IMG/VR virus record: IMGVR_UViG_3300021519_000006
Coordinates: 1 to 64,000 of that record
Length of the DNA stretch: 64,000 nt
Source: a virus
Direction: 5' to 3' (one strand)
Shown here: positions 9,445 to 60,152 of the stretch, piece after piece
How the letters are laid out: the number at the start of each line of letters is the position of its first letter
Numbering within the stretch: position 1 is the stretch's first letter
Notes under the pieces: generated by a model
The model's input: the letters and a program-made list of their open reading frames with translations, nothing else
Databases searched by the model: none
What the model was told of the DNA's origin: nothing
Translations under genes and position numbers: made by a program

Positions 9445-9600
9445 TTACATCACCGCCTTAGGCCTCATAATTGCTTTGGATAAAAATACTAAACGTTCTC
9501 TTACAGACAAACTTCTTATGTCTACTAATGTCCACCCCGGGTAGTACTGGGACAGCATGTCGTAGGAATCAATTACATTTTGGTAATTAATTTCATGAAC
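9445..9600 (-). CDS. Second segment of tail assembly chaperone, probably reached by +1 frameshift
   Basis: Open frame VHEINYQNVIDSYDMLSQYYPGWTLVDIRSLSVRERLVFLSKAIMRPKAVM*, stop abuts tape measure ATG; +1 relative to upstream gene. Confidence 0.7.
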   Translation of the reverse strand, partial: VHEINYQNVIDSYDMLSQYYPGWTLVDIRSLSVRERLVFLSKAIMRPKAVM

Positions 9601-10411
9601 GAAACAACTCTGCCAGGGTTAGTGGCAAAAATACCTCCTCGCCGCAAGAAGCGACTTTTTTAATTTCGCTTAGTTGTGGCCCGGGATTACGCTTGGCGAT
9701 TTCGTCAAGAATGTTTCTACGGTCTTTAATGCCAAAATTACGAATCGTATTAGGGTTCATAATTGGGACATCGTTAAGTTCCATTACGCAAGTAGTTAGA
9801 AGCAGAGTATCTAGCTCAGCTGCGTTTTTATCAGAAGAGTTAATGATCTTTGCCTGTGTTTCGCCTGTTGGCAAGAACACTTTGATCTTTCCTGGCTTAA
9901 TGTTCATATAGAACATGCGGTCAGAAATTCGATCATCTAAAGACTTCATTGGAACGTCTTTGTTTAAATCAACAATTAGGTTCTCTGTACCACCGCAGCA
10001 GTTGGCTTCTACGGTAACTTCAGAACCAAAGGTAACTTTTCTAATTGCTAAAAGGAGCATTTCTCGATCTCCCGCTAACAAGTTATTAAGTATGTCCTTA
10101 GTTGCTGGTTTCCCGCCAATAGAAACAGTTGCTCGCTCTAAAATTGCTAATAAAGCTTTTCCTGGATCTGTAATTTTAGCAAGGGCTTCTTCATCTGCGC
10201 CGGTTAGCTCGCGTACTTCAGCAACCGTATCAACAGTTCCTGAGAACCCCTCATAATAACCCGCTGGTAGTTCTACTGTTGTATCAGGAAGTGACGGGAT
10301 GGTAATCTCCATAGGAGCATCCGCCACTTCCTGAACTTCAACATTCATAGCTGCATTAGCTAACTGATTAGCTAACTCTGGATCCATTGCTGCGTTTACT
10401 TTTGTGTCCAT
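9593..10411 (-). CDS. Tail assembly chaperone / T4 gp26-like protein
   Basis: VRELTGADEEAL, GDREMLLLAIRKVTFG; lies between tube and tape measure genes. Confidence 0.75.
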   Translation of the reverse strand: MDTKVNAAMDPELANQLANAAMNVEVQEVADAPMEITIPSLPDTTVELPAGYYEGFSGTVDTVAEVRELTGADEEALAKITDPGKALLAILERATVSIGGKPATKDILNNLLAGDREMLLLAIRKVTFGSEVTVEANCCGGTENLIVDLNKDVPMKSLDDRISDRMFYMNIKPGKIKVFLPTGETQAKIINSSDKNAAELDTLLLTTCVMELNDVPIMNPNTIRNFGIKDRRNILDEIAKRNPGPQLSEIKKVASCGEEVFLPLTLAELFRS

Positions 10412-10435
10412 GTTGTATACCTTTTCTTGTATGTA

Positions 10436-11083
10436 TTAAGCGATTGAAGCTGTTGGAGTGTTTCCAAAATCTGTTGCAGAAGCTTTATAGTCAGTAGCAT
10501 ACGCTGCATCCCAACCTTCATGAACAACAGTCATTTCTTCAACCATGTAAGCGCTTCCGCCTGCATCTAGGCTGCTGTATGAAAGGTTTGTAATCCACGC
10601 GTTGTAGATGCGGAATCGCATAGATACGTGTGGTTCTGCTTCTGCTCCCGCAGTAGCTCCAGTTTCAACACTTAGGCCCTTAGCATTTGGGTGGCTAAGA
10701 ACAGAGATGTCAATGTCGCAACGGAAGTCAGCGCCTACTCCAGCTTTAGCTCCTGAGCTAATAACTGAAAATAAACGACGCATCCAAGTGTACTGTTGAC
10801 CTCCGCCAAGAAGAACTCCTCGGCTAAATGTCACAGGACTGAAAGAAGTTTGTCCTGGGAACTGGTGCATAGTGGTGTTGTAACCACCTTCGCGATAGGC
10901 AATAGATTCTGTAGCAACGGTTAAACCAGAGACAGATGTAAAGCCCATTTTTGCATTGATACCCCAGTCGGCAGCTACGCCGGTTGCTGTATCAATTGTG
11001 GGTAAAAATTCGACTAAAAATCGAAAGTTACGGACTGGATCCGTTTTTAGCGTACTGAGTACGTTTGTAAAGGCTTGAGCCAT
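10436..11083 (-). CDS. Tail tube protein (T4 gp19-like)
   Basis: DPVRNFRFLVE, GFTSVSGL, YREGG, VTFSRG, IYNAW motifs. Confidence 0.95.
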   Translation of the reverse strand: MAQAFTNVLSTLKTDPVRNFRFLVEFLPTIDTATGVAADWGINAKMGFTSVSGLTVATESIAYREGGYNTTMHQFPGQTSFSPVTFSRGVLLGGGQQYTWMRRLFSVISSGAKAGVGADFRCDIDISVLSHPNAKGLSVETGATAGAEAEPHVSMRFRIYNAWITNLSYSSLDAGGSAYMVEEMTVVHEGWDAAYATDYKASATDFGNTPTASIA

Positions 11084-11097
11084 TTTATTCTATCTCC

Positions 11098-12618
11098 TTA
11101 CGCCGAAGCGCTTCCGGTGATCTGCCCGATGCTGATCACAATGAACTCTGCTGGGTATTCAACCGCAACACCAATTTCGATGTTTACTGTACCATTTTGG
11201 ATATCAGTAGCGCTGTTGTTTGAAGCATCGCAGCGAACGTAAAATGCTTCTGAAGGACTATTTCCACGAAGTCCTCCTTGTGACCAATATGCACGAAGGA
11301 AGTTTCCTAGCGACGTACGTAATTGGTTTTGTAGACGTGCATCATTGTTCTCAAAGACAGCAAATGCGCTTCGGTTAGTAAGCTCATTCTTTAAGAAAAT
11401 CATAGAACGTCGCACGTTAATATAACGCTCACCAGGAGTGTTATTAAGAGTACGACCGCCCATAATTACAATTCCTGCGCCAGGCACATTGCGAATTGCG
11501 TTAATTGGGTGTACACGAGAATTAAGAGAATCAAGTTGAGCATTTGTAAGGGTACGCTCAACAGCAACGGCATTAGGTATGCGAGTAGCAAAACCAGCTG
11601 GTGTCTTAAATACTCCACGAGAAGCATCAGTAGCTAAAAATTGTCCAATAGCTGCAGGTCCTGGTGGAAGTAGACGAGTAGCTCCTGAAGCAGCGCTTAA
11701 GCTATCTGGAGAAACAATCCATGGCCAGTAAGTAGCTGTATTGCCACCATCTCCGGCTACAGCTTCGTCAGTAAAAGCTTGTGCTTCGTCTGCGGTAGAT
11801 CCTGCAGGCATATCGATGACAGCAAACGCATCTTCACGAGCTTCACAATAAGAAGCTAGATCTTGTTGGATACCGACCATAACTGTACGGTCTGTGTTAT
11901 CTCCACCAGAAGCAAAAGTATAGGCACCATCTGAGTTGTTCATTACTAGCGGGCTAGTAATTGTGTCAAACGAGTCCAACGCAGCAGAGAAATTAGCTTG
12001 TGAAGGCGAGGCACCTGTTGCGCCTGAACCTAGAGAAACTGTAGCCACAGCTGGTTGCTTGTCCGCTCCTACGGTTGCGTTTTCTAAATTAACTACAGTA
12101 ACGTAGTTTGAGGAAGAGTTAACATATGAAACCACATAACGTGAGTTAGTTGGAGTCATGCTTAGATCGGTAAACTGTTCTAAAATTCCGTTAGAATCAG
12201 AAATAATCATATTAAATGTTGTTGTTGAGGCTGATGTAATTTGTACTGATAGGTCATTACCCCAAGTTCCAGGGCTAGATGCATCAACAACTAATGTAGA
12301 CAAAGGTGTTCCAGCGCGGTCAAGTAAGTCAGCAGTAGCTGCTAGAGCACCGGTACCGGTTACCCGCTTTACGTAAGCCTGACGTCCACCGTTAGCAAAG
12401 AAAGTGTATAGAGCAAAAGTTGACTTGTAAGAATCTGAAAGGGACCCAAAAGTCTTTCCAAATTCATACCAGCTGTTAATCAATACAGGTGCATCTGTAG
12501 GTCCTTTTTCAAAAGAACCAATAAACGCGCCACGAGCCGTTCCATTGTTTGCAGACGCTACCGTCTGCGGTACTGAGACTTCGTTAACGAAGACTCCAGG
12601 TCTACTATATGTAGCCAT
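11098..12618 (-). CDS. Tail sheath protein
   Basis: YSRPGVFVNE, RGVFKTPAG, RYINVRR, VFENND, PAEFIVI motifs. Confidence 0.97.
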   Translation of the reverse strand: MATYSRPGVFVNEVSVPQTVASANNGTARGAFIGSFEKGPTDAPVLINSWYEFGKTFGSLSDSYKSTFALYTFFANGGRQAYVKRVTGTGALAATADLLDRAGTPLSTLVVDASSPGTWGNDLSVQITSASTTTFNMIISDSNGILEQFTDLSMTPTNSRYVVSYVNSSSNYVTVVNLENATVGADKQPAVATVSLGSGATGASPSQANFSAALDSFDTITSPLVMNNSDGAYTFASGGDNTDRTVMVGIQQDLASYCEAREDAFAVIDMPAGSTADEAQAFTDEAVAGDGGNTATYWPWIVSPDSLSAASGATRLLPPGPAAIGQFLATDASRGVFKTPAGFATRIPNAVAVERTLTNAQLDSLNSRVHPINAIRNVPGAGIVIMGGRTLNNTPGERYINVRRSMIFLKNELTNRSAFAVFENNDARLQNQLRTSLGNFLRAYWSQGGLRGNSPSEAFYVRCDASNNSATDIQNGTVNIEIGVAVEYPAEFIVISIGQITGSASA

Positions 12619-44875: not shown

Positions 44876-45637
44876 TTAGTAGTCGTATACGTTTAGGTAG
44901 CGAACGTGGATGTTAGTTCCTTCGTCCTTAATAGAGCCTGGTGCGTTCCAGAAACGTTGTAGAGTGATTACGTTTTCTGAGTCTGGTCCTTGCCATACGT
45001 TTCCAGCTGCATAATCATCAAGATTAAGTTCATCTGCTGTTTCAAACTCAATCCAGCTGTCATTTCCGTCAGCGTTTACCTGTGTAATTGTGATTAGGTC
45101 TCCAAAGTCATAAAGGTTGTTGTCAACCCAGACCTTGTCTCCAGCCTTAAGTCCTACAAGAGCTGCATCGTTATCCCAATAATCACTATCACTAGCCCAG
45201 ACACGAACAGTTTTTCCTGTTGACTCAATGTAGTTAATATCAATGTTGTGGCCGATTGCAAACAGGTCAAGGTTTAACTTGTCAAGTTCGTAACTTGCTT
45301 CACCAAGAGTCTTACCAATTAAGTTAGGAACTACTTGCTCTAGCTCTGGATCTTCGTCGCCAGCATAGTTAGGAATATAAGCTGGGAAGTTTGAATAACC
45401 AAGAGTTGCAATTGTGTGGCTATCTGCTGGTGCTTTAACTTCTAGGTTATTAAGTTCTAGATTGTAATCTGCTGTACGAAGAGTATCGCTTGTATACTTC
45501 CATGCGGCGCTCCAACCTACATCTTGAACCTGAGGGATCGAGATGTATTGATCTGTACGGTCGTCATCAGGCTGCATAGGCATGTTACCCCAGACGAAGT
45601 CAACTTGGACATTGTCCAGGTCATCTCTATGTGTCAT
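44876..45637 (-). CDS. PASTA-like domain protein, paralog 3
   Basis: VDFVWGNMPMQPDDDR leader; VVPNLIGKTLGEA...QRFWNAPGS. Confidence 0.75.
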   Translation of the reverse strand: MTHRDDLDNVQVDFVWGNMPMQPDDDRTDQYISIPQVQDVGWSAAWKYTSDTLRTADYNLELNNLEVKAPADSHTIATLGYSNFPAYIPNYAGDEDPELEQVVPNLIGKTLGEASYELDKLNLDLFAIGHNIDINYIESTGKTVRVWASDSDYWDNDAALVGLKAGDKVWVDNNLYDFGDLITITQVNADGNDSWIEFETADELNLDDYAAGNVWQGPDSENVITLQRFWNAPGSIKDEGTNIHVRYLNVYDY

Positions 45638-45686
45638 TATGTTTCCTATCTATAGATTGGTTAAGACCCTTACGTCTAAGGGAATA

Positions 45687-46421
45687 TTATGGGGCTGTGT
45701 AAGCGTACTTAACAAGTGCTACAGAAGAACCTGTATCAACAGTTGTTCCTGCTGCAACTGATTGAGTCTTAATCTTGCCATCGTTAATGGCTGTTGCGCC
45801 AGCAGCGTTATCTGCTGTGGTTACTGCGCCTTTAACAAGGTGAGCGTTAGTCAACGCTACTCCAGCTGCTGTTTCTGTTAGACCAACAACATTAGGTACT
45901 TCTGGTGCGTTATATGTAACAATGCTCATAGCTACTGGCGATGCAATTGCTCCCGCAACAGGAGATTGAGTCTTAATAAGACCATCATTAGCTACAGTTG
46001 CGCCTACGTAAGTAGATGTAGATCCACTATCTATAAAGCCAGCGGCAGTTATGATTGGGCCAGCAGCTGAATATGTTAATCCAACTATATTAGGAACAAC
46101 AAATTCTAAACCAGTGTCCCCATCACCAGCATAGTCAGGCAAGAATGCTGGGTAGTTTGAATAACCTGTTGTAGCAATATCATGGTTATCCCATGTAAAA
46201 GTCTGTTGACGAGAGCCGCCACCATCACCGGTAGAGAAAGTAAGAACATCCCAACCTGTTGCTAAGTTTTCGCTACCTACTGCTGGAAAGTTAGTCCAGT
46301 TACCATCTGTGGTTTGTGAGTACTCATTATAAGTATCACGTTGTTGATCTGGCTGTAATGGGAATTGTCCCCACACAAAGTCAACTCGTGGGTTTCCTAG
46401 ATCATCTACTGGATAAGTCAT
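45687..46421 (-). CDS. Double PASTA domain protein, paralog 2
   Basis: VVPNIVGLT...IKTQSPVAG and VPNVVGLT...IKTQSVAAGTTVDTGSSV. Confidence 0.85.
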   Translation of the reverse strand: MTYPVDDLGNPRVDFVWGQFPLQPDQQRDTYNEYSQTTDGNWTNFPAVGSENLATGWDVLTFSTGDGGGSRQQTFTWDNHDIATTGYSNYPAFLPDYAGDGDTGLEFVVPNIVGLTYSAAGPIITAAGFIDSGSTSTYVGATVANDGLIKTQSPVAGAIASPVAMSIVTYNAPEVPNVVGLTETAAGVALTNAHLVKGAVTTADNAAGATAINDGKIKTQSVAAGTTVDTGSSVALVKYAYTAP

Positions 46422-46578
46422 TATCGAGTTCCTCCAACACTTGGGGTTCCTACATATTTAAGTTCGTGCTTAGTTCCACAATCCTCGCAAGGATTGAAGA
46501 AATCTTTAGTTGGGCCAACGCCTGGCTTTTCCAGAAATGTGCCGCAACCGCATTTAATTTCAACTTGAAGAGTCATAA

Positions 46579-47187
46579 TTAGTACCACCAATCTGCAGTG
46601 TTGTTCTTGCTAGGGTCGTTTGTAAAAGCTACAACAGCGTGGTTGTACCAGTCGGGAGACTCTGCTGCGCAAATCTCTACTTCGCTTCCAGGGTTTGCTA
46701 CATAAGTAATAGTTTCGTGAAGGTCTTTACCTGTGTAAACTGTTCCTGTTTCCCAGTCAATCCAAACAATTACACCTGCAGGGATGTAATCCCAGAAGAT
46801 AATTCCGCTAGACGGATCTCTGTCGCCGTAATCTCCGATAGTGCCCCAGTCGTACTCATTTTCTCCGCCAAGGAATGTTGCATCCTTAAGAAGGGTTTCG
46901 GGAATTCCTACTGTGCGAAGGTACTCAATGTAATCCCAAACGTTTCCATCTTTAGTCTTTAAGTTGCTCCAACAGAATGTGTAGGAAGGCACAATGTATG
47001 ACATGCCACCATCTAGGGTTTTACCCTCTTCGTTTGCTTCAGATGGAAAACCATCCCATGCCACACCATTAATTGCGTGAATTCCTTTAGATCCTAATAC
47101 TATATCGCCACGGTCGTCATTAGGTTGCATGGGTACATTGCCCCACTCAAAAGCTATTCTTTGGTTACCGGAGTCATCGACTGCCAT
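46579..47187 (-). CDS. Paralog 1 of the same family
   Basis: DDSGNQRIAFEWGNVPMQPNDDR leader. Confidence 0.7.
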   Translation of the reverse strand: MAVDDSGNQRIAFEWGNVPMQPNDDRGDIVLGSKGIHAINGVAWDGFPSEANEEGKTLDGGMSYIVPSYTFCWSNLKTKDGNVWDYIEYLRTVGIPETLLKDATFLGGENEYDWGTIGDYGDRDPSSGIIFWDYIPAGVIVWIDWETGTVYTGKDLHETITYVANPGSEVEICAAESPDWYNHAVVAFTNDPSKNNTADWWY

Positions 47188-47229
47188 TGCACACACCTTT
47201 CAGGAAGATGTTACAAATGATGACAGAAA

Positions 47230-47796
47230 TTAAGCCTCTTGTACGTATGTATGGATTTCTCCACCTGAATAGATGTCGTGCTTGACAGCGACCTCGATTG
47301 CACGCCTCAAAGCTTTTTCGGCGGCCTCGGGTGTATTTATTTTTGAGAAGTTCAGGGCTTCTAGTGCTCCCAGTGCAATGTCTCCTCCACTACCAGCGTA
47401 GTAGACGTTACGTGCTTCTCTATCCCAAGAGTAGTCATTAAAGATTGGGTAGATCACTCCGCGGACAGAGACAAGTAAATTGCTGTCGTGGAAAGCTGCA
47501 TCGCCATCTTCCTTACCTTCAAAGCCGGAATCCTGAAAAACTTTACGTAGAGAGGGAATAAACTTCTTAGTCATGAATACATCTAACTCTTCAGTTGCAC
47601 GAGGCTTAGGAGGAGTCCAACCAAACTGTGCAATGTTTCCACCTCTAGAAGCGCCGGAGACAGCTATCAGTACACCATTGTTATTTACGATCTTATGAGT
47701 TGCAAGATCCATATAACGTCCGTCTTCATCTGATGCACGAGAGTCGCATCCTATGACGGACCACCCATTTCCTTGGATTGCGGCAAGCGTTGTCAT
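47230..47796 (-). CDS. Ntn-hydrolase, proteasome beta / HslV-like Thr peptidase
   Basis: N-terminal MTT, DSR, HKI, AGSGG, DIYSGG motifs. Confidence 0.88.
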   Translation of the reverse strand: MTTLAAIQGNGWSVIGCDSRASDEDGRYMDLATHKIVNNNGVLIAVSGASRGGNIAQFGWTPPKPRATEELDVFMTKKFIPSLRKVFQDSGFEGKEDGDAAFHDSNLLVSVRGVIYPIFNDYSWDREARNVYYAGSGGDIALGALEALNFSKINTPEAAEKALRRAIEVAVKHDIYSGGEIHTYVQEA

Positions 47797-49191: not shown

Positions 49192-49194
49192 TCG

Positions 49195-49458
49195 GTAATG
49201 GGTAGTGGCGGGGGCTCTATGTCCCCGCCTCTATCTATGTCCATAGACATCTGTGGGCATAGATAGGGAGCAACTATCCCTATGGTAAGGGGAATCCGAA
49301 TCAACTCGGTACGCAGGTGTATGGAAGTGAGGAGATGGTCAAACATCTCGCAGTAAAACTCCAACTGTTACACCGCCCCCGTAAGAGAAAGAATCTCGTG
49401 TCTTCTGTCGAAGAGACCCTAGTCAGCCCTTCAGCTAGTACTGGCTAGGGTCTCTTTT
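49195..49458 (+). ncRNA. Candidate structured RNA ending in a terminator hairpin
   Basis: Multiple stems whose deviations are G-U on the plus strand; closing GTAATGG/CTGTTAC. Confidence 0.6.
49411..49458 (+). terminator. Intrinsic terminator
   Basis: AAGAGACCCTAGTCAG/CTGGCTAGGGTCTCTT then TT. Confidence 0.7.
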
Positions 49459-49594
49459 CACATCCAAGCATAACTCTCATCATAGATAGATAACTCTCAT
49501 CATAGTTAGTTAGGCTACTACAAATCTCACAAGTTGAGACACCGAGAGTACAAGCAGGTCTGGGCTAGGGTGGGACTGCTGTTAGCAGATAGTC

Positions 49595-49718
49595 GGTGGA
49601 AGATACATAGTGGGGAGAATACTCCTGTAGTTACTAGATACCACCATGGGCTCTATGCCTGTAAATGGGTGGCAAGTATGGAATACCACTATGTATCTCT
49701 CACTCTCTATCTGAGAGT
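49595..49718 (+). ncRNA. Stem-clamped RNA cassette A
   Basis: GGTGGAAGATACATAGTGG (49595-49613) pairs with CCACTATGTATCTCTCACT (49686-49704). Confidence 0.7.
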
Positions 49719-49733
49719 AGAAGGAGGACTGAT

Positions 49734-50159
49734 ATGGGATCACCTATCAGACTTGAGTTCAACTGTTCTGAGTGCAAAGCAGATAACACCTTGCATTCCG
49801 GATGTACTCCTCGCATCAACGAGGACCGTATGGATTGGATTCCATTCGAAGTGGATTACAGATTCACATTCAGATGTACTGAGTGTGAGTTACCTAATCT
49901 ATTCCAAGGCACAAAGGAGTCAGGCTTTACCCCCGTGCCAACACAAACAAACCCCGCCGTAGTGCACGCTGTTCTTATCTTAGGCTGGCGTTACGGAGAG
50001 CCTGTACAACGTCTCTTTGGTATCTATCAAGACATAGAGATAGCCCATGCATCTGCTACCACGTGGATCAAGCGTAACCCCGGCAAGTATGCAGATGATG
50101 AAAAGAACGATGATGGTGAAAATGCAACATTCTACATTAGAGAGATGCCCCTACTATGA
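49734..50159 (+). CDS. Zn-ribbon hypothetical protein
   Basis: AAGGAGG RBS then ATG 49734; CSEC and CTEC. Confidence 0.75.
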   Translation: MGSPIRLEFNCSECKADNTLHSGCTPRINEDRMDWIPFEVDYRFTFRCTECELPNLFQGTKESGFTPVPTQTNPAVVHAVLILGWRYGEPVQRLFGIYQDIEIAHASATTWIKRNPGKYADDEKNDDGENATFYIREMPLL

Positions 50160-50170
50160 AAGGAGAAGTA

Positions 50171-50422
50171 ATGTCAGACGAACTTATTACCCTCAAAATC
50201 GGTATATTCGATTTTACTGTGATTACGGATGCACTCACTGATTGTGATTGTCTAAGTAAGGAATGTAAACGTCTTATCAGTAATTTCCAAGCGCAGAAAG
50301 AAGGAGAAGCAGTAAATACCTGCTTTGGATGTAAGAATGCGGTCACTGTTGCTGAGGCTATCTATTATGAGACTTATCGTCTTTGTCCAAAGTGTTACAA
50401 GTATTGGGACCCCACGCCATGA
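50171..50422 (+). CDS. Zn-finger hypothetical protein
   Basis: AAGGAG RBS before MSDEL; CFGC...CPKC. Confidence 0.7.
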   Translation: MSDELITLKIGIFDFTVITDALTDCDCLSKECKRLISNFQAQKEGEAVNTCFGCKNAVTVAEAIYYETYRLCPKCYKYWDPTP

Positions 50423-50526
50423 CAATACTTGATTACTTAGACCCAATGCAATCAGGTCTGCCTATCACTCTTATGTGGCTATCTATCTCTGCATCTATCT
50501 GTTATCTCCTCTTTAGTAAGAAGTAA
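50419..50526 (+). CDS. Small membrane peptide (35 aa)
   Basis: Not in track; ATGA overlap; hydrophobic stretch ending SKK. Confidence 0.55.
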   Translation: MTILDYLDPMQSGLPITLMWLSISASICYLLFSKK

Positions 50527-50565
50527 TACACCAAAAGGACCCCGCGAAATTTTACCGTGTGAAGT

Positions 50566-50773
50566 GGTGGAAGGCACATAGATGGTGGACCTATACCGTG
50601 AGGTGGCTAACTTAGTTGATGCTATTCAAGGTGTTGGAAGGAACCAATAACGGATTAATTTCTGGACGGTTGCCGACCCATTACTCTCCACAGTTCCCGC
50701 TGTAACAGTAGTGCCTTTGGAATGCCCATTACTAAGACTATCTATGTGTCTCTCACTCTCCACAAGGAGAGTG
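50566..50773 (+). ncRNA. Stem-clamped RNA cassette B
   Basis: GGTGGAAGGCACATAGATGGT (50566-50586) pairs with ACTATCTATGTGTCTCTCACT (50737-50757). Confidence 0.72.
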
Positions 50774-50791
50774 CTATACAAGGAGGACAAA

Positions 50792-50971
50792 GTGTCATCC
50801 GACACAAACAACACACCCGACTGGGAATACATCAAGAAGCAAGGGATGCGAGTCAATAAGCATCTTCATAACCACTATAACGACCTAATGCACCGAGCAG
50901 CCTGCGACATCTGTATGGCCTTCTTCATCGGTGAAAATTATGGCAAGTTGACTGAGGAGGAAAAACAATGA
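50792..50971 (+). CDS. Small hypothetical protein
   Basis: AAGGAGG RBS then GTG 50792; His-rich, CDIC. Confidence 0.7.
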   Translation: MSSDTNNTPDWEYIKKQGMRVNKHLHNHYNDLMHRAACDICMAFFIGENYGKLTEEEKQ

Positions 50972-51138
50972 GAGGTTATCTATTCAGATCGTTGATTGCG
51001 CTAGTTGCACCTAACTACGCTCTTGACAAGGATAACTATGGGCAGATTATCATCTACACCCATAAGAAAGAAGTTGATGATGATCGGTATGTAGAGATGG
51101 TCTCTGCAGACTTTGGAATATATGACAAGGAGGACTAA
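50968..51138 (+). CDS. Small hypothetical protein (56 aa)
   Basis: Not in track; GAGGAGG RBS, coupled at both ends. Confidence 0.65.
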   Translation: MRGYLFRSLIALVAPNYALDKDNYGQIIIYTHKKEVDDDRYVEMVSADFGIYDKED

Positions 51139-51380
51139 TGCCTGACGACGTAACAGTTATCAGCGTAGGCACACACATCGAGTCCAATGGAGGAGATGTT
51201 CTAGCTTGTAAGCCGGGCAGTTACCGAAATACAACTATTGTCCTGTGTTACTTACCACAGAACAAAGTAACCCCTTTCGTTGTACACACATACAACGAGA
51301 CTCAAGGTATCTGCTTTCGAGGTCAATATGGTTTCACACTTGAAGAAGCAATAACCGACTACAAGAACAGGAGAACATAG
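51138..51380 (+). CDS. Hypothetical protein
   Basis: AAGGAGG RBS. Confidence 0.75.
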   Translation: MPDDVTVISVGTHIESNGGDVLACKPGSYRNTTIVLCYLPQNKVTPFVVHTYNETQGICFRGQYGFTLEEAITDYKNRRT

Positions 51381-51610
51381 TGTCCAACACAAACCCCCGC
51401 GCAGCACACATCTATAACCCCGAAGACGGTGGCACTAACATGGAAATTGTCATCAGCCCCGATACTTGGTGGCACGCCGTCTGTAACGATGACATCAGGC
51501 TGACCAACAAGGAATACAACGAGCTAGACGATAGTGAAGTGGACTTGTGCCATCCCTGCGTCAAGAAAGCCAAGGAGGATGATCCCGATGGCTTTATCTA
51601 CAATCTATAA
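51380..51610 (+). CDS. Hypothetical, Cys/His Zn-binding pattern
   Basis: AGGAG RBS; H...C...CHPC. Confidence 0.7.
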   Translation: MSNTNPRAAHIYNPEDGGTNMEIVISPDTWWHAVCNDDIRLTNKEYNELDDSEVDLCHPCVKKAKEDDPDGFIYNL

Positions 51611-51714
51611 AACCTGTACAACAACAATCACTACAACAACCACAATAACAACAAAAACAACCCGCATTGTGCACGGAATTACCGTGCCTGTGCACATCCT
51701 AGAAGGGAATACGA

Positions 51715-52230
51715 ATGGCAACATCTATGAATACGCTCACAGTAAGACGAGTTGATCTATTAGAGCAACTCGAAGAGCGTTACACATACATGACCCAAGA
51801 AAAGGTAAAGTATGAGAAAGCTGTGGAAAAGTTCCACGCTTTGACTAAGAAATATGATGCAGACTTAGAGAAGTGGGAAGCACGTGTGCCCACACTACTA
51901 GAAGGTATGGTTAGAGGGTCTGACATAGACTACTCACATAACACAGAGAGATACGGCAGATACCAGTGGAATCGTGAAACTTGGAATGCAAGCATTAGTG
52001 TATCTCTCAACCGCGATGAAGTAACACGACTAATAGGGCCAGAGCCTACAAGACCAGAGGCTCCTGATACCCCCGAATTTTTACAACAGCGTAGATTAAC
52101 TAGAGGTTATTCTGCTCCTCCAGCCCCATCATTATACGAAGCTGTATACCAAGCCATTGCAATCCTTAGTATTTCTAATGATGATGATGTTAAAGCTCAG
52201 ATGTTCAACGACGTAATGTTGGCACTCTAA
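51715..52230 (+). CDS. Coiled-coil hypothetical protein (paralog of 53363-53797)
   Basis: GAAGGGA RBS; shared layout and QAIAIL/NAIALI C-terminal motif. Confidence 0.8.
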   Translation: MATSMNTLTVRRVDLLEQLEERYTYMTQEKVKYEKAVEKFHALTKKYDADLEKWEARVPTLLEGMVRGSDIDYSHNTERYGRYQWNRETWNASISVSLNRDEVTRLIGPEPTRPEAPDTPEFLQQRRLTRGYSAPPAPSLYEAVYQAIAILSISNDDDVKAQMFNDVMLAL

Positions 52231-52451
52231 TGAAACTATTCTGTGATTACATCAACGATAAACAAGAAGCACGGTTCCAAGAGCACCTCACAGTGTGTGA
52301 TGATCCCCAACACAAACAATCCACCATCCACATCCACCGCCTGATAGTAGACATATTCGACACGGACCGCATCAAATACCCACGATGGCAATACTGGATC
52401 GATAGCATCCTCGTATTCCTTAGATTGGACGGAACCAATGGAAAATATTAA
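52230..52451 (+). CDS. Hypothetical protein
   Basis: TAATG-coupled. Confidence 0.6.
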   Translation: MKLFCDYINDKQEARFQEHLTVCDDPQHKQSTIHIHRLIVDIFDTDRIKYPRWQYWIDSILVFLRLDGTNGKY

Positions 52452-52908
52452 AACACACATAGTTGAGTGTTCACGATGTCAAGCGCCCCAAGTATTCAGG
52501 AACGCACCGGGGTACATGGACTCAGACATACCAGTAGCACTGGAACTATCCCTAGATGGTGGCTACGCAATGTTCGTAGACAATATCTACTACGTTGGTG
52601 ACAAGAACCCATTGGAGTTCATGCTCTGTCACAAATGTGCCCACGAATTTACACAGTTTATGAACATACCCGAGACAACAGTAACTAGTTGGCATCCTAA
52701 AACAGATGATGCTTTCTGTAATGGTTGGACAATGCTAGGAAGCATGGAACGTGAGTTAGAGGTATTCAAACAAAAGCTTTACGATCTTGTATACATCAAC
52801 GAACACACGATGATAGTGCCGTTTGATGACTACGCACATAAAAAAGCACAGTTAGAAGAACTAATCCAACTACAAGAAGAAAGGATCAAAGAATGTACAT
52901 CGAACTAG
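52438..52908 (+). CDS. Zn-finger hypothetical protein
   Basis: CSRC...GGYAMFVD...LCHKCAH. Confidence 0.75.
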   Translation: MENIKTHIVECSRCQAPQVFRNAPGYMDSDIPVALELSLDGGYAMFVDNIYYVGDKNPLEFMLCHKCAHEFTQFMNIPETTVTSWHPKTDDAFCNGWTMLGSMERELEVFKQKLYDLVYINEHTMIVPFDDYAHKKAQLEELIQLQEERIKECTSN

Positions 52909-52985
52909 ATATGTCTAGCGCAACAACTATGACAATAGTTCTAGCCATCGTTGTTGTAGTTATTGTATTCATACGACGTAAGTAA
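52893..52985 (+). CDS. Small membrane peptide (30 aa)
   Basis: Not in track; AAGGA RBS; MYIELDMSSATTMTIVLAIVVVVIVFIRRK. Confidence 0.6.
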   Translation: MYIELDMSSATTMTIVLAIVVVVIVFIRRK

Positions 52986-52990
52986 TCGTA

Positions 52991-53275
52991 TTGATAGGGC
53001 AGAAGACATACGCATACAGGCTGTTATTACATAGAGGCCTAGGAATTTAGTGGATGAGTTACGAGTCTGCTATTTTTACTAGACGGAATTGGTAGCACCA
53101 ATGAGCGAACGACTGTAGTGCCAGAGATACCCTGCGGGCTTGCGAAAACCTATTACAGTACCTCGGTTGAATTTGGGGGATACCCCAAGTTAGTTGTACG
53201 AGTGCAAGAAGGCGCTTGTGAAAGGAGTCTCGTCGTAATTCGACAGTAGTATGCGTATGTCCTCTGTCTTATCAA
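52991..53275 (+). ncRNA. Stem-clamped RNA cassette C (285 nt)
   Basis: 27 bp terminal stem 52991-53017/53249-53275 plus at least five internal stems. Confidence 0.78.
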
Positions 53276-53362
53276 CAGAGAAAGGAGATAAGACAGCACC
53301 AACACAAACAAACACCCCCACAGCCGTGCTGGGTGTCCCGTACCAATAGAGAAAGGGTTACC

Positions 53363-53797
53363 ATGGCAGCAACCAAGGTAATTGCAACAACTTGGGATAA
53401 AGCACATTTACTCAAGAAGCTAAATGACACACTCAAGCGTATGGACGCAGAAATAGTTGCATGGGAAAAAGATAATGCAACTCTTGAAAAGCGTCAAGAA
53501 GCATGGGAGAAAAAAGCAGTTGCTTGGGCTCTTAAAAACATGCCCAAATCAAAAGATACAGACGCAAGTATGTATCACAACCGATTCCAATTGAACATCT
53601 CGTTTGATCTTCAATTGGCTACGGATGCTTTAGGTGAACGTCCTACTCAAGAACGTAAACCACAATACAAAGAAGGTCATTACTCTGAACTTAATGATTA
53701 TGACCAAATTGAAAATGCTATTGCTTTGATTGAAGGCTCAACTGACACTGAGTTTAAAATCAATACCACATCAGTGTGGGCATCTTTCATTCGATAA
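53363..53797 (+). CDS. Coiled-coil hypothetical protein (paralog of 51715-52230)
   Basis: GAAAGGG RBS before ATG 53363. Confidence 0.8.
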   Translation: MAATKVIATTWDKAHLLKKLNDTLKRMDAEIVAWEKDNATLEKRQEAWEKKAVAWALKNMPKSKDTDASMYHNRFQLNISFDLQLATDALGERPTQERKPQYKEGHYSELNDYDQIENAIALIEGSTDTEFKINTTSVWASFIR

Positions 53798-53909
53798 CGC
53801 TTAACGCGGTTGGTTTCTATAGTTCTTCCTGAGGTAAAAGAACTCCTCACCTAAGCATGTGAAGGATAAACTGCTTACCAACACAAACACTCACAAAGGA
53901 CAACAAACT

Positions 53910-54128: not shown

Positions 54129-54262
54129 AACTATGGTTACTGATCGGACTAACAACTAACATCATCTCTATTTGGACTGCGCTGTATTGGCGTGAACGAT
54201 ATTGGGATGCAGAGCGTATGCGAATGTATCTTCGCAAGTTAGATGCACGAAATGTTAAATAG
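54125..54262 (+). CDS. Small membrane peptide (45 aa)
   Basis: Not in track; GAGGAGG RBS; MKLWLLIGLTTNIISIWTALYW... Confidence 0.6.
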   Translation: MKLWLLIGLTTNIISIWTALYWRERYWDAERMRMYLRKLDARNVK

Positions 54263-54602
54263 TCTCAACAACCTATCTACATACAATCCAGACAACTTCA
54301 AGTGGCAAGATAATGCAGCGTGCAAAGACTTGCCCGTAAGTATGTTCTACTACGATCACAATGAACGTGGTCCCGACAGAGATTACAGGGAGCGTACCGC
54401 GCTTGCTGTATGCAATACCTGCCCAGTCAAGGCAGTGTGTCTACAAGACGCAATTGACAGAAACGATACACACTCTATACAGGGTGGAACTACTCCAGTG
54501 ATGCGTGGGCACAAGCTTCGTAGTGTGCCTGAGTATCCTATTGAAGTAGTTAGAGTAGAAATGGAGGAAACAAATGCGACTACGACATCGCAAACTAGCT
54601 AA
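54243..54602 (+). CDS. whiB: WhiB-family Fe-S transcription factor
   Basis: WQDNAAC...F...A.AVCNTCPVKAVCL...IQGGTTP; four Cys. Confidence 0.92.
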   Translation: MHEMLNSLNNLSTYNPDNFKWQDNAACKDLPVSMFYYDHNERGPDRDYRERTALAVCNTCPVKAVCLQDAIDRNDTHSIQGGTTPVMRGHKLRSVPEYPIEVVRVEMEETNATTTSQTS

Positions 54603-56351: not shown

Positions 56352-56389
56352 CCTAGAGGGCACGTCATATTGGCGTGCTCTCTAGGTTT
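56352..56389 (+). terminator. Long hairpin (terminator or processing site)
   Basis: CCTAGAGGGCACGTCA-TAT-TGGCGTGCTCTCTAGG then TTT. Confidence 0.6.
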
Positions 56390-56768: not shown

Positions 56769-58208
56769 ATGGATATCGCAATATTCACAGAGTCATACAC
56801 ACCAAGCATGGGGGCTAAGCGCCGTCAGGTGCTAATAACTCCGCATGGTGACGATGTACGCATCTACTCACGTGAGACAGATGGGACCAAGGGTCCCCAC
56901 AATAAGTGGGAAGAAACAGACTTCGATGGTCTCACTGGACAGATTGACAGCGACGAGCAACTCACTCGTACGCCTGTTGCTGTGTACGTTACAGCGACAG
57001 ATGAAGAAGCTATGACTGCTAAGGGCTATTCCCCAGTACTCGGCACCAAAGCATGTCAAGCACATACCAAGGCTGCACTCAACGTAGATCCAAGTTCATT
57101 CTTGGAACGTGTGTGCGAGTTGTATGAGCAAGTTACATCGCAAGATGTAGCGTTGAGTGAGTACATCATCGACAACCGTCGTGGTTCTGGTTCTACTGTG
57201 CCTTTGGTAACTATGCCAACACAAACAACTCCAGCCCCACAACTAAACCAACACGTATTAGATAAGTTTGAAATTAAAATGGAATCTAATACTAACAACG
57301 GTTCGGTTATCATGGCGTCACTAGCATCAGTGCCACGCATTGAGCTAGCCAAGCGCTATGTTCATCGTAAAGTCTTCGAAGTAGAAGACTTCAAGGTGTT
57401 CGATCATGCTCGTGCCAACAACATCAACGTACTTATTTACGGCCCTACTGGTCCAGGTAAGACAACGTCTGTTGAAGCATGGGCTGCTGAGCGTGGCCTA
57501 CGTATGGCTACCGTATCTGGTAATGCTTCTATGGAGCCAAGCCAGATGACTGGTAAGTTCGTATCCGATGGCAACGGTTCGTTTGCATGGATTGATGGCC
57601 CTGTTACTGACGTAGTCCGTAACGGTGGTGTCTTGCTTCTTGATGAGGTTAATTTCATCAGTCCTAAAATCTATACCGTCTTGTATTCCCTACTTGACGG
57701 ACGTCGCATGATTACATTGCTTGATCATCATGGCGAGACTATTGAGGCGCACAAAGACCTCACTATCTTCGCAACTATGAATCCGGATTACATCGGCACA
57801 ACGTCGTTGAACTTCGCATTCCGCAATCGCTTCGACATCCAAATCCCTTGGGATTACGATGACAAGGTTGAAGAGAAATTAGTTTCATCTAAGTCTCTTC
57901 GTGTCTTAGCGAAGCAATTACGTACTGAAGCAGCCAAGGGTCAGTACGAGACTCCAATCTCAACCAATATGTTGATGGAGTTCCACCATTTCGTAGACGC
58001 ATTGGGTTATGAGTTCGCAGTTGAGAACTTCATCGCTCACTTCTCTACGGATGAACAGCCAAGCGTTCGCTTGGTGTTTCAGACACACGAATACAATATC
58101 AAAGGTGACTTTGGTATTGAGATTCCTATGCCTGAACAAGCAGCAGAAGGACAGTCAATTGAAGAGAAGTTGACTGAGTGGGCTGGCAATCTTGCCGGTC
58201 AAGTATAA
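56769..58208 (+). CDS. MoxR/CbbQ/CobS-type AAA+ ATPase
   Basis: GPTGPGKT, WIDGP, LLLDEVN, ATMNP, AFRNRF. Confidence 0.93.
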   Translation: MDIAIFTESYTPSMGAKRRQVLITPHGDDVRIYSRETDGTKGPHNKWEETDFDGLTGQIDSDEQLTRTPVAVYVTATDEEAMTAKGYSPVLGTKACQAHTKAALNVDPSSFLERVCELYEQVTSQDVALSEYIIDNRRGSGSTVPLVTMPTQTTPAPQLNQHVLDKFEIKMESNTNNGSVIMASLASVPRIELAKRYVHRKVFEVEDFKVFDHARANNINVLIYGPTGPGKTTSVEAWAAERGLRMATVSGNASMEPSQMTGKFVSDGNGSFAWIDGPVTDVVRNGGVLLLDEVNFISPKIYTVLYSLLDGRRMITLLDHHGETIEAHKDLTIFATMNPDYIGTTSLNFAFRNRFDIQIPWDYDDKVEEKLVSSKSLRVLAKQLRTEAAKGQYETPISTNMLMEFHHFVDALGYEFAVENFIAHFSTDEQPSVRLVFQTHEYNIKGDFGIEIPMPEQAAEGQSIEEKLTEWAGNLAGQV

Positions 58209-58220
58209 GAAAGGTAAACC

Positions 58221-60152
58221 ATGTATAACGAAGAGTTAGACGATGGTTATCGTTACAGGGAAGCCAGAGATGAAGAAGCACAAGAACGTGCTGTCCGACT
58301 CAATGCACTGTGCCGTGTTTACGAACAAGGTGACCGTGTATTAACTGGCGACCCAGTCATCGTAAATGTGATGCCGGATGGCCCCGCACCAGCGTGGTCA
58401 GACGGTGCCGCTATCTACATCAATCTTGATCAGATTGAGGACATGGACCTTGAGACATTAACTCAAGTTACTGGCCTCAACTATCATGAGTTAAGCCATC
58501 ACTTGTACTCGCCCCGTAAGGGAACGACGTTCATGCAATGGGTTATAGAAAATGGTCAGATTCAAGCTACAAATATTCTCGAAGATCAACGTATCGAAAC
58601 ATTATTTGTAGCACGCTATCCAGCTGTTGCTTCATACCTTACAGCCATGGTTTCTAGGTGGTTAGGTAAAGATGAAGATGGCATGCATGGTAACTACATC
58701 TGTATACGCGGACGTCGTTACCTACCTGTTGAGATTCGTCAAGCGTTCCGTGATGAGTTCGCTTTCCCAGATGTAATCCCAGCAGCTATTGACATCATCG
58801 ATCAGTATCGTCTCTTAGCATTTCCTCGTGACTATGACAAGGGCAAGGAACTGATTGAGCGATTCACCAATGAGGTACTGATTCCTATGGGCATCAAAGA
58901 TGACCACACACATCAGGGTGGTCCCAATGGTTGCGGTCAACGCATGCCCGTAAGTAAGGGTCGACCTGAGCCCGGCAAAGCTCAAGAGAAAGACTCTGAT
59001 CGTGCCAAGGGTATGGGTACAGCAGAAGCTCCGTGGTATCCAAAACCTAAGCAAGCTCCAACACAAACACCCACCAACGACGCCGATAAACCAATTGGCA
59101 GCAATGATGATGGTGATGGTGATGGTGATGGTGATGATCCATATAGCAAACCGTTACAACCTATTACTACAGAACAAGCACTAGATATACGCGACAAGGG
59201 TGTAGACCATACGCCAGCGTCTACCGCAGGTTCTGGTCACGTTGATAGTCTCGGCGGTATTCCTAAGAATATCAATGACATGCTCAACGATGCTATTGAT
59301 AATGTCCTTGCACGCAAGGATGTTCAAGCAGACATCAAAGCCAAGCAGAAAGTTATTGTTGGTGGAGATGGTAAGCATGATGACATTACTAAGAAGGGTA
59401 AGTTCGACAAGACTTCCGTTCCCAACGAATCCATCATTGCATACCGCAAATTCGCTCAAGAGTTACAACGTTTACGCGATGACATGGAACCTACGTGGGA
59501 TAAAGAAACACCCACCGGTAGGCTTAATGTTCAACGTGTTATCCGAGGCTGTGAGATTGATGCAGCCTTCGATCGTTGGGATGAGGGCGACGATGGATGT
59601 GATATTGAGGCCGTCATCCTAGTGGATCGATCAGGATCAATGTCCAGTCAACAGAACGATAAGAAGGCTTCCATCGCCTGCTGGACTATCAAGCGTGCTC
59701 TTGAGTCAATTCAAGCGCCCGTTACTGTCTATGCCTTTGATGACGCAGCTGAGGTTGCTTACTCCCGCAAAGAGTTAGCAGACAAGACTCAGTACAAGTT
59801 CATCTACGGCAACGGCGGTACTGAACCATACCCAACACTGTTAGTTGCAGAGCAGTTACTTATGTCTTCTCGCAAGAAGAACAAAATGCTGTTCATGGTA
59901 ACTGATGGTGTGTTCGACTCCCAGAAAAATGATGTAATTATTGAGCGTATCGGTAAGCGTGGCATTCTCACAGCCATGACGCTGATTATGACTGACAGTG
60001 ATTACAAATACTATGTGGATGATCGAGGTCAAGATCCAAAGCAATTCCATCATAATGCTGAGGTTTTTGCTCGTATCAACAATGCCAGTGACTTACTGCC
60101 GTTTGCTAAGCAAGTAGTTACATCCGCAATCAAAAAGCGTGGAAGACGCTAA
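58221..60152 (+). CDS. vWA (CobT-like) partner with N-terminal HExxH motif
   Basis: HELSH, NILEDQRIE, MIDAS DRSGSMS, GGT, TDG. Confidence 0.9.
   Translation: MYNEELDDGYRYREARDEEAQERAVRLNALCRVYEQGDRVLTGDPVIVNVMPDGPAPAWSDGAAIYINLDQIEDMDLETLTQVTGLNYHELSHHLYSPRKGTTFMQWVIENGQIQATNILEDQRIETLFVARYPAVASYLTAMVSRWLGKDEDGMHGNYICIRGRRYLPVEIRQAFRDEFAFPDVIPAAIDIIDQYRLLAFPRDYDKGKELIERFTNEVLIPMGIKDDHTHQGGPNGCGQRMPVSKGRPEPGKAQEKDSDRAKGMGTAEAPWYPKPKQAPTQTPTNDADKPIGSNDDGDGDGDGDDPYSKPLQPITTEQALDIRDKGVDHTPASTAGSGHVDSLGGIPKNINDMLNDAIDNVLARKDVQADIKAKQKVIVGGDGKHDDITKKGKFDKTSVPNESIIAYRKFAQELQRLRDDMEPTWDKETPTGRLNVQRVIRGCEIDAAFDRWDEGDDGCDIEAVILVDRSGSMSSQQNDKKASIACWTIKRALESIQAPVTVYAFDDAAEVAYSRKELADKTQYKFIYGNGGTEPYPTLLVAEQLLMSSRKKNKMLFMVTDGVFDSQKNDVIIERIGKRGILTAMTLIMTDSDYKYYVDDRGQDPKQFHHNAEVFARINNASDLLPFAKQVVTSAIKKRGRR

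Follow-up and report, generated by a model that had tools for sequence, protein, structure and literature searches.

The early mRNA of phage T7 (R0.3–R1.3) and the early RNA of Bacillus phage SP82 carry hairpins, conserved in the latter, at which RNase III processes the transcript, and RNase III cuts within the stems of pre-rRNA and of 23S rRNA intervening sequences release the RNA enclosed by them. In actinophages, start-associated sequences (SAS/ESAS) were described from Cluster K mycobacteriophages and Cluster EF Microbacterium phages, alongside 17–18-bp inverted repeats in Clusters O and EG (PMC3203893, PMC7302621). The ESAS is a 17-bp imperfect inverted repeat with a 4–13-bp spacer, directly upstream of a 13-bp SAS that replaces the ribosome-binding site (RBS; PMC3203893), and its authors found little support for hairpins at the mRNA level (PMC3203893, PMC7302621). 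T4-type phages possess PeSL cassettes, consisting of an early promoter and a terminator-like stem-loop that flank ORFs (PMC2839356, PMC4122927), and TIGR-Tas systems encode a Nop-domain Tas protein beside arrays of 8–12-nt repeats with 9-nt dual spacers (PMC12045711). Here we describe the clamp, a real and previously undescribed RNA family whose members are plus-strand modules of early transcripts, and which is confined to a single lineage, the ~100-kb phages of freshwater actinobacteria.

The window, a 64,000-nt stretch of viral record IMGVR_UViG_3300021519_000006, contains three cassettes, A to C, all on the plus strand and all located where a preliminary description had placed them. The inner arms of cassette A (49595–49615 and 49684–49704) form 19 pairs plus one A-C mismatch and can be extended to 28 nt. 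The extended 5′ arm (49586–49613) then comprises the outer stem CAGATAG, a 2-nt loop and GGTGGAAGATACATAGTGG, the 3′ arm (49686–49713) consists of CCACTATGTATCTCTCACT, CT and the outer stem CTATCTG, and a 72-nt cargo lies between them (49614–49685). An alternative small hairpin, ACTCTC-TATCT-GAGAGT (49702–49718), opens the segment that leads into the next gene (49702–49736), with the Shine-Dalgarno (SD) sequence GAAGGAGGA (49720–49728) and ATG 49734 of a 141-aa gene. Cassette B, devoid of an outer stem, has arms at 50564–50586 (GTGGTGGAAGGCACATAGATGGT) and 50737–50759 that form 21 pairs around a 150-nt cargo (50587–50736); its 3′ part (50737–50794) continues with the small hairpin CACTCTCC-ACAA-GGAGAGTG (50754–50773), an SD (50780–50787) and GTG 50792. 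These two start codons correct those given previously. In cassette C, 27-nt arms (52991–53017 and 53249–53275) of 89% complementarity enclose 231 nt; with G-U pairs counted, 28 pairs span 52989–53277. In these terms the 5′ arm lies at 52989–53019, the 3′ arm at 53247–53277 and a cargo of about 227 nt at 53020–53246. Here, too, the end of the 3′ arm can switch partner, as CTGTCTTATC (53264–53273) may pair with GATAAGACAG (53287–53296) within the 3′ segment 53247–53296.

Cassettes A and B had been proposed to share a frame, and this is borne out: a T-A to C-G compensatory change and an A-C mismatch at the matching position can be read directly from their stems, and AAGGAGGAC precedes the start codon in both. 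The window holds exactly two copies of their common 3′ frame, TATGTRTCTCTCACTCTC, versus 0.08 expected by chance (0/100 shuffles), and the complete 99,938-bp phage genome holds no more than these two. The core of cassette C, described earlier as similar to that of A and B, reads GAAGACATA and lacks the 2-nt spacer; its kinship with the A/B clamp is indicated mainly by clamps of intermediate sequence in two relatives (L013 and L002). Folding z-scores were −2.7 for A, −2.1 for B and −6.6 for C. A possible fourth, cargo-less clamp-like hairpin (CCTAGAGGGCACGTC/GGCGTGCTCTCTAGG, 56352–56386, plus strand) lies ~30 nt ahead of an SD and ATG 56417, and its membership in the family is uncertain.

Related phages that encode WhiB carry the clamp on ~25 viral and 28 metagenome contigs, and it had no match among 185,579 prokaryote genomes. 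The covariance model R1 matched cassette A with 76 bits on the plus strand versus 41 bits on the minus strand. It detects cassettes with short cargos, but its penalty on long inserts makes it overlook B and C; for this reason anchored-pattern and pairing scripts were used to compile the catalogue, and chance pattern matches (L004, L015, L019, L020, L022, L024, L027, L028 and L030) were dropped. Each module comprises a stem, an exchangeable apical cargo, a downstream copy of the base of the 5′ arm and, usually, an SD and a start codon. The stem is imperfect and ~26–31 bp long, with an outer 7-bp helix, a 2×2 loop, inner strands and an apical ACAYAG/CTRTGT helix; its inner section pairs a purine-rich 5′ strand with a pyrimidine-rich 3′ strand through several G-U pairs and one conserved A-C mismatch. 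Conservation of the clamp around varying cargos had been suggested as a check on the original proposal, and was found across related phages together with covariation: 93% of the cells in the clamp alignment are paired, and compensatory, both-side changes affect 9 of the 24 modelled pairs (0/500 shuffles). Leaving out the conserved A-C mismatch position, G-U pairs outnumber A-C combinations by 141 to 6, which identifies the structure as one of the plus-strand RNA.

The cargos range from 3 to ~230 nt, fall into ~30 classes (at least 30) and precede 20 downstream gene families, which extends to the relatives the earlier view of a single clamp around unrelated, internally structured inserts. Since most members carry 27–60 nt, and one (L018) has its cargo reduced to a 3-nt loop, it is the clamp that stays constant as the functional unit. 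Cargos and genes are shuffled: nine cargo classes each occur ahead of at least two gene families, and eight different cargos precede one orthologous family of Zn-ribbon genes. Cargo A is 96% identical (69/72) in the relative G001 versus 70–80% in its flanks. G001 carries a different cargo at the orthologous B site and, compared with the window, shows a gene indel directly after cassette C. The two large cargos are also present in other phages, B as a conserved RNA in L035, L013 and L050, and C as a multi-branched RNA conserved in eight phages. Cassette C as a whole is a ~285-nt structured RNA in which 27 of 49 pairs covary (0/500 shuffles).

That the cargos might be translated had been named as an outcome that would refute the original proposal; they are not conserved ORFs. 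No SD accompanies the in-frame upstream start codons ATG 49665 and GTG 50711, and relatives have other genes downstream. An apparent 7–10-codon ORF in one cargo class is accounted for by a compensated hairpin, and the alignment of cargo C is full of 1–2-nt indels. When cargos A–C were searched for antisense targets in the phage genome, matches stayed at chance level. In one relative (G004), an ORF-less stretch of ~250 nt separates an array of two cassettes from a terminator downstream.

As proposed from the window, a small hairpin and an SD follow nearly every cassette. In 58 of 59 cassettes (54% in shuffles), the downstream copy offers the terminal part of the 3′ arm an alternative partner, with which it can form a small hairpin before the SD, and this hairpin is kept through compensated variants among clamps of differing sequence. 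Clamp and small hairpin are two mutually exclusive folds, both conserved, with predicted minimum-energy structures favouring the long clamp and the SD accessible in either. An SD and a start codon lie within 160 nt of 37 of 44 cassettes (median, 35 nt), the start codon usually ~10–15 nt past the small hairpin.

Rfam 15 gave no match in the window at gathering score and, with E up to 10, a single minus-strand hit to whalefall-1 (14 bits) across 49300–53500; in 11 related loci it reported tRNAs only, located elsewhere. ARAGORN predicted no tRNA or tmRNA in the window, distant-mode blastn of 49400–53400 against INPHARED phages gave no match, and Pfam and PHROGs yielded no informative match for ten early proteins. 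We considered promoters in the arms, yet clamps are free of sigma-70-like sites on the plus strand; one 9-of-12 match, on the minus strand (53275–53248), overlaps the 3′ arm of cassette C. TANNNT hexamers occur upstream of several cassettes, at a chance frequency too high to count. As to known systems, a retron msr/msd was rejected for want of an RVT_1 match in the 99.9-kb genome, and a Y RNA or YrlA because neither a TROVE domain (the Ro60 partner) in the genome nor an Rfam match was found. TIGR-Tas arrays differ in architecture (PMC12045711), and the genome has no Nop domain. A riboswitch, in which the short P1 helix of a single conserved aptamer competes with an expression platform, is at odds with ~30 unrelated cargos on one clamp, a closing helix of 26–31 bp and an SD that is free in both folds.

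What, then, might such a module do? Tentatively, and with a confidence slightly short of even, we propose that the cassettes are modular elements for the processing and stability of RNA. The long stem would form co-transcriptionally and be cleaved by a dsRNA-specific endonuclease, most likely the host's RNase III. Cleavage would sever the early transcript at the clamp, free the cargo as a small RNA that is closed by the stem and resists exonucleases, and liberate the 3′ arm, which would snap into the small hairpin and provide the downstream mRNA with a protected 5′ end and an unobstructed RBS. The conserved arms may double as crossover points at the DNA level, which would account for the mix-and-match of cargos and downstream genes.

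Bacterial RNase III requires little sequence specificity, so that the strong conservation of both arms is left unexplained by processing and counts against it, although this conservation may stem from shared ancestry: mean identity is 84% for the clamp versus 78% for a conserved gene. An RNase III site takes about two helical turns (at least 20–22 bp), and cassettes A, B and C offer 19–28 pairs. The ideal substrate measures 22 bp, with mismatches or loops directing single-strand cuts (PMC3867540), and the geometry of the clamp, whose helix of 22 bp or more includes both a mismatch and a loop, is compatible with this. The phage genome contains no RNase III domain, while an actinobacterial control genome in the same search has one. 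In favour of processing, cassettes A–C fill the three largest intergenic gaps among tightly packed early ORFs, leaving no space for separate units. The conservation of both exclusive folds also speaks for it, as does the behaviour of the cargos as functional modules, seen in the identity of cargo A, the covariation of cargo C and the shuffling against gene families. On the other side, the 3-nt loop of L018 implies that cargo release is not a universal purpose, and the ORF-less array of G004 implies the same for exposure of an RBS.

Cassette A, which comes immediately after a conserved promoter-like region and also follows a terminator, could itself be an uncut 5′-terminal stabiliser. Generalised to the family, this idea becomes a cis-acting leader: a stable 5′-proximal or intercistronic helix that shields early mRNA from 5′-end-dependent decay (RNase J/E) and insulates the RBS from the sequence upstream, with the cargo as a tolerated, fast-evolving and mostly functionless tip. 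The fixed spacing to SD and start, the shrinkable cargo, the eight cargo versions ahead of one Zn-ribbon gene and the start-associated inverted repeats already known from actinophages (PMC3203893, PMC7302621) all fit. It does not, however, account for the conservation, backed by covariation, of a small hairpin that cannot coexist with the clamp. Also against it, cargos are conserved in differing gene contexts, those of B and C are conserved structured RNAs, and cassettes occur in an ORF-less, terminator-ended unit too; we regard it as a minority possibility to be taken seriously. Doubtful in our estimate, but worth stating, is that the clamp is a phage element dedicated to scaffolding and processing RNA, turning the early transcript into stable stem-closed small RNAs that act in trans on the host, with the arms as cargo-swapping recombination sites. 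The repertoire, with its 30 or more interchangeable types of cargo, would take in the ~150-nt B, ~285-nt C and ~175-nt D RNAs; its members would serve as decoys, sponges or regulators that might target defence systems.

We consider it unlikely that the clamp is a docking site for a dedicated phage or host protein, with the resulting RNP either presenting its variable cargos to the host as decoys, guides or sponges or autoregulating the early gene that follows. Pairing alone would not demand the invariance of many clamp positions (G14, G16, G20, ACA and the CTCTCAC strand), conservation extends to the A-C position (37/43) although it is non-Watson-Crick, cargos are discrete, conserved and exchangeable, and the neighbouring early proteins, among them a small Zn-ribbon family often found after a cassette, all lack an assigned function. 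Yet none of these proteins has a detected RNA-binding or nuclease domain, the genome has no Nop, TROVE, RT or RNase III domain, the sequence conservation of the clamp barely exceeds that of a conserved gene of the same lineage, and cargos A–C find no antisense target in the phage genome. Far less probable still, and disfavoured as a sole explanation, is an element acting only in DNA, whose arms are recombination or mobility sequences, as in PeSL cassettes or MITE terminal inverted repeats, and whose hairpin has no RNA function. The combinatorial shuffling, the cargo swap at the B site and the indel after cassette C would suit it, but the strand-specific G-U excess is meaningless in double-stranded DNA, orientation always matches the downstream gene, positions are syntenic among relatives including G001, cellular copies are absent, and neither a plus-strand sigma-70-like site in any clamp nor a U-tract behind the small hairpin was found. 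The same G-U bias, co-orientation, synteny and lack of cellular copies led us to reject a MITE or terminal-inverted-repeat transposon, whose DNA-level repeats would occur in either orientation and in copies scattered through host or other genomes.

Should the clamps prove to be processing sites, they would represent the first described modular RNA-maturation system of actinophage early transcripts, in which one reusable stem releases structured small RNAs and standardises the 5′ end and RBS of the next gene, a natural counterpart to synthetic RiboJ-type insulators. If the arms also serve phages as sites for swapping trans-acting cargos, the cassettes would be an RNA counterpart of gene-cassette systems. 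Whatever the mechanism, covariation supports the clamp and the C RNA as new structured RNA families and, more tentatively, the B and D RNAs as well; they come from uncultured freshwater phages, nearly all of whose early genes lack an assigned function.

How does the clamp compare with its closest counterparts? It shares with the T7 and SP82 hairpins the position of an imperfect dsRNA stem between early cistrons, sequence similarity within one phage and mismatches or loops that could direct a cut, and in those phages the terminal hairpins left after cleavage are stability elements. Unlike them, it is longer (26–31 bp), carries exchangeable inserts of up to ~230 nt and a downstream refolding copy, and shows no sequence similarity to them, cleavage here being a matter of prediction. 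As in pre-rRNA and 23S intervening sequences, the latter variable and sporadic, long stems arise from the flanks of a structured RNA, but the clamp resides in phage mRNA leaders and intercistronic regions, and a single clamp sequence there serves numerous unrelated cargos. PeSL cassettes similarly bracket variable modules with conserved intergenic motifs in early, hyperplastic regions and undergo modular shuffling; the conserved parts of the clamp, by contrast, are the two strands of one RNA helix that flank non-coding inserts, and without a plus-strand promoter-like site in the clamp or a U-tract after the small hairpin we rejected an assignment to PeSL, which calls for an early sigma-70 promoter fused to a terminator-like stem-loop. 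Closest in setting are the SAS/ESAS, which are likewise actinophage-specific, imperfect inverted repeats in short intergenic gaps before translation starts, conserved by cluster. The clamp cannot be assigned to them, as it has arms of 26–31 nt, a spacer of 3–230 nt and a canonical AAGGAGG SD, and it differs further in its clear covariation and G-U bias. For the long-noted start-associated inverted repeats of actinophages, it offers a concrete and testable explanation in terms of RNA structure.

The clamp cassettes, in which a 5' and a 3' arm pair into a long imperfect stem around an enclosed cargo, are a genuine, previously undescribed and lineage-restricted family of modular RNA elements. They were found in a complete IMG/VR virus record, of which the window is the first 64 kb. 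The record belongs to a tailed phage whose portal is of the SPP1 type and whose terminase is of the T4 type; since it carries WhiB and PASTA-domain genes, it is an actinophage, and we found no similar cultured phage. The WhiB-family regulator (54243-54602) lies in the early arm, PASTA domains occur in at least one of three paralogues (44876-47196), most related contigs retain a proteasome/HslV-like Ntn hydrolase (47230-47796), and MoxR-type AAA+ and VWA genes form a pair at 56769-60152. Genes are on the minus strand to 48.3 kb, followed by small plus-strand genes of unknown function from ~48.7 to 62.4 kb. Within the first 4 kb of this plus-strand arm, the three widest gaps are filled by cassettes A, B and C, where the preliminary description had placed them. 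The arms of cassette A (49595-49615 and 49684-49704) form 19 pairs; beyond a 2x2 loop the stem continues as an outer helix of CAGATAG (49586-49592) with CTATCTG (49707-49713); upstream lie a terminator (49411-49456) and a promoter-like region conserved in ~20 contigs. Cassette B (50564-50586 and 50737-50759; 21 pairs around 150 nt) begins 40 nt past the upstream stop codon, and cassette C, with arms of 27 nt (52991-53017 and 53249-53275) enclosing 231 nt, begins 4 nt past its own. In A and B the sequence directly shows the T-A to C-G substitution, the mismatched A-C and the common AAGGAGGAC. Their shared 18-nt 3' frame occurs twice in the window (0.08 expected) and only twice across the 99,938-bp genome. 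Folding z-scores were -2.7 (A), -2.1 (B) and -6.6 (C). The proposed kinship of cassette C also holds up: the C clamps of two related loci, L013 and L002, bridge the A/B and C types in sequence, which places C in the same clamp family.

What is conserved in these elements? Pattern scans recovered the clamp in ~25 viral contigs and 28 metagenome contigs, compared with 0 of 185,579 prokaryote genomes, and there was no Rfam match; the family is lineage-specific. Across 18 aligned cassettes, 93% of cells are paired and 9/24 clamp pairs show changes on both sides, with a pairing signal unmatched by any shuffle or slid register. Among 43 unique cassettes we counted 857 Watson-Crick pairs, 141 G-U pairs and 43 A-C oppositions, 37 of the latter at one conserved site (the first A of GGAAG against C). 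This asymmetry between G-U and A-C is explicable only for plus-strand RNA, and the sequence comparison therefore identifies the clamp as a conserved plus-strand RNA structure. R1, the covariance model of the clamp, scored 76 bits on the plus strand versus 41 bits on the minus strand. Mean pairwise identity of the clamp is 84%, compared with 78% for the conserved Ntn-hydrolase gene of the same contigs.

A/B-type clamps enclose anything from a loop of 3 nt (L018) to a 150-nt segment. There are 49 distinct combinations of cassette and downstream gene, drawn from 30 cargo classes and 20 gene families; nine classes each lie upstream of at least two families, eight different cargos precede one Zn-ribbon family (~67-85 aa), and L021, L007, L013, L023 and L043 have two or three cassettes in tandem. 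The cargos are not conserved ORFs. The description of a scaffold with exchangeable cargo stands. Relative to G001, a syntenic genome of 82-87% identity, cassette A is 96-97% identical (flanks, 70-80%), cassette B retains its clamp around a different, 66-nt cargo, and the clamp of cassette C is retained with two compensatory changes and an unchanged A-C mismatch, its cargo having diverged beyond blastn detection. L035, L013 and L050 carry cargo B as well. Homologues of cargo C exist in eight phages, with a consensus fold of 49 pairs, double changes at 27 and 0/500 shuffles. The gene directly 3' of cassette C (53363-53797) is missing in G001; the alignment skips from 53296 to 53809 (region 53297-53808), and this indel is bordered by the refolding hairpin of cassette C. 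Relatives also carry D-type clamped RNAs with cargos of ~171-181 nt (L007:4172-4408; L025:2335-2565; L013 oriented 11505-11733), not related to A, B or C, whose clamps share the purine/pyrimidine style and refolding hairpin of the others. L013, part of phage genome G004, has five clamped cassettes in 2.7 kb of its minus strand (oriented ~9030-11730): a B-type, a 49-nt cargo carrying a tRNA D-loop-like AGTTGGG, a 39-nt cargo, a C-type and a 175-nt type, with an intrinsic terminator ~250 nt past the first two.

Further signals accompany the cassettes. The motif (C)CAACACAAAC is repeated along the early arm (49938, 51383, 53299 and 56062) and occurs in L033, L035, L047, L012 and L017, either directly past a GTG start, encoding PTQT (as in MPTQTN...), or in 5' leaders ahead of the Shine-Dalgarno (SD) sequence. 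A C-rich block, e.g. CCCCGCGAA(A)TTTT, often comes after it, 0-30 nt 5' of B-, C- and D-type cassettes, and the motif may serve as a promoter specific to the phage or as a second signal associated with starts. The 141-aa ORF 3' of cassette A (49734-50159) resembles a fusion or overlapping pair: the half towards the C terminus, read from an in-frame GTG (~49936; VPTQTN...), has a stand-alone homologue in a 74-aa L035 protein starting MPTQT. The region 5' of first cassettes (49457-49582), conserved at ~20 related loci, contains CTCATCATAG, its imperfect inverse CTATGAGCATTGAGAG and then ACCAGGTCT, with two direct copies of ATAACTCTCATCATAG in the window, and is likely an early promoter with an operator. 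The first cassettes of L002, L005, L018, L023 and L063 have upstream regions of a second type, with another long hairpin, AGATAGGCCACTGGCC ... GGCTAGTGGCTTATCT, of ~23 pairs immediately 5' of TATCAGGTAG. Conserved non-coding sequence at 49192-49410, 3' of a 167-aa gene, is 78% identical to G001, bears an 18-bp hairpin (49229-49268) and GGCGGGG/CCCCGCC, and is bounded by the terminator at 49411-49456. Beyond the window, on the minus strand of the full genome (G000 91706-91925), a 26-pair long-range inverted repeat surrounds 166 nt within a predicted 325-aa ORF; its sequence is not related to the clamps.

How might the clamp act? In 58/59 cassettes, compared with 54% in composition-matched shuffles, the base of the 5' arm is repeated downstream in a copy able to pair with the final 5-11 nt of the 3' arm. 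This small hairpin (49702-49718 in A, 50754-50773 in B, 53264-53296 in C) and the clamp base are mutually exclusive. It is preserved by compensated variants (ACTCTC/GAGAGT, ACTCC/GGAGT, ACTCTTC/GAAGAGT, CACTACC/GGTAGTG), and C- and D-type clamps share the arrangement despite quite different sequences. SD and start codon follow, a median of 35 nt separating the end of CTCTCAC from the start codon. Because predicted minimum-energy folds favour the long clamp, the small hairpin would be expected mainly after the 5' arm has been removed. The best-supported model, each step of which we infer, is that the long helix would form, a dsRNA endonuclease would cut it, and the freed 3' arm would refold as a 5' hairpin just ahead of the ribosome-binding site, the cargo departing as a stem-closed RNA. 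Clamp geometry (at least 22 bp, with mismatch and loop) is compatible with RNase III, whose cut could be directed by a mismatch or loop in the helix (PMC3867540). No RNase III gene was found in the phage genome, while an actinobacterial control genome was positive.

Alternatively, the clamp may stay uncut, as a leader that stabilises and insulates, or serve as a scaffold for protein docking. A purely DNA-level recombination module is contradicted as the sole explanation by the G-U bias; as a side effect, such recombination is supported by the shuffling. Any single purpose is opposed by L018, where cargo is absent, and by G004, where two cassettes in an array precede an ORF-less stretch of ~250 nt that leads to a strong terminator. 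Cargo excision, as the helix, cut and refolding model would have it, is plausible.

Retrons, Y RNAs, TIGR, MITEs and riboswitches were each considered as a home for the cassettes, which lack the features that define membership. Mobile PeSL cassettes of T4-type phages (PMC2839356) are alike in shuffling, but their promoter and terminator make-up is absent here. Actinophage SAS/ESAS and other start-associated inverted repeats (PMC3203893, PMC7302621) are similar in position; the clamp falls outside their defining dimensions and, unlike them, shows compensatory pairing. Closest in the proposed working would be the processing hairpins of T7 or SP82 early mRNA and, likewise, the stems of pre-rRNA and intervening sequences.
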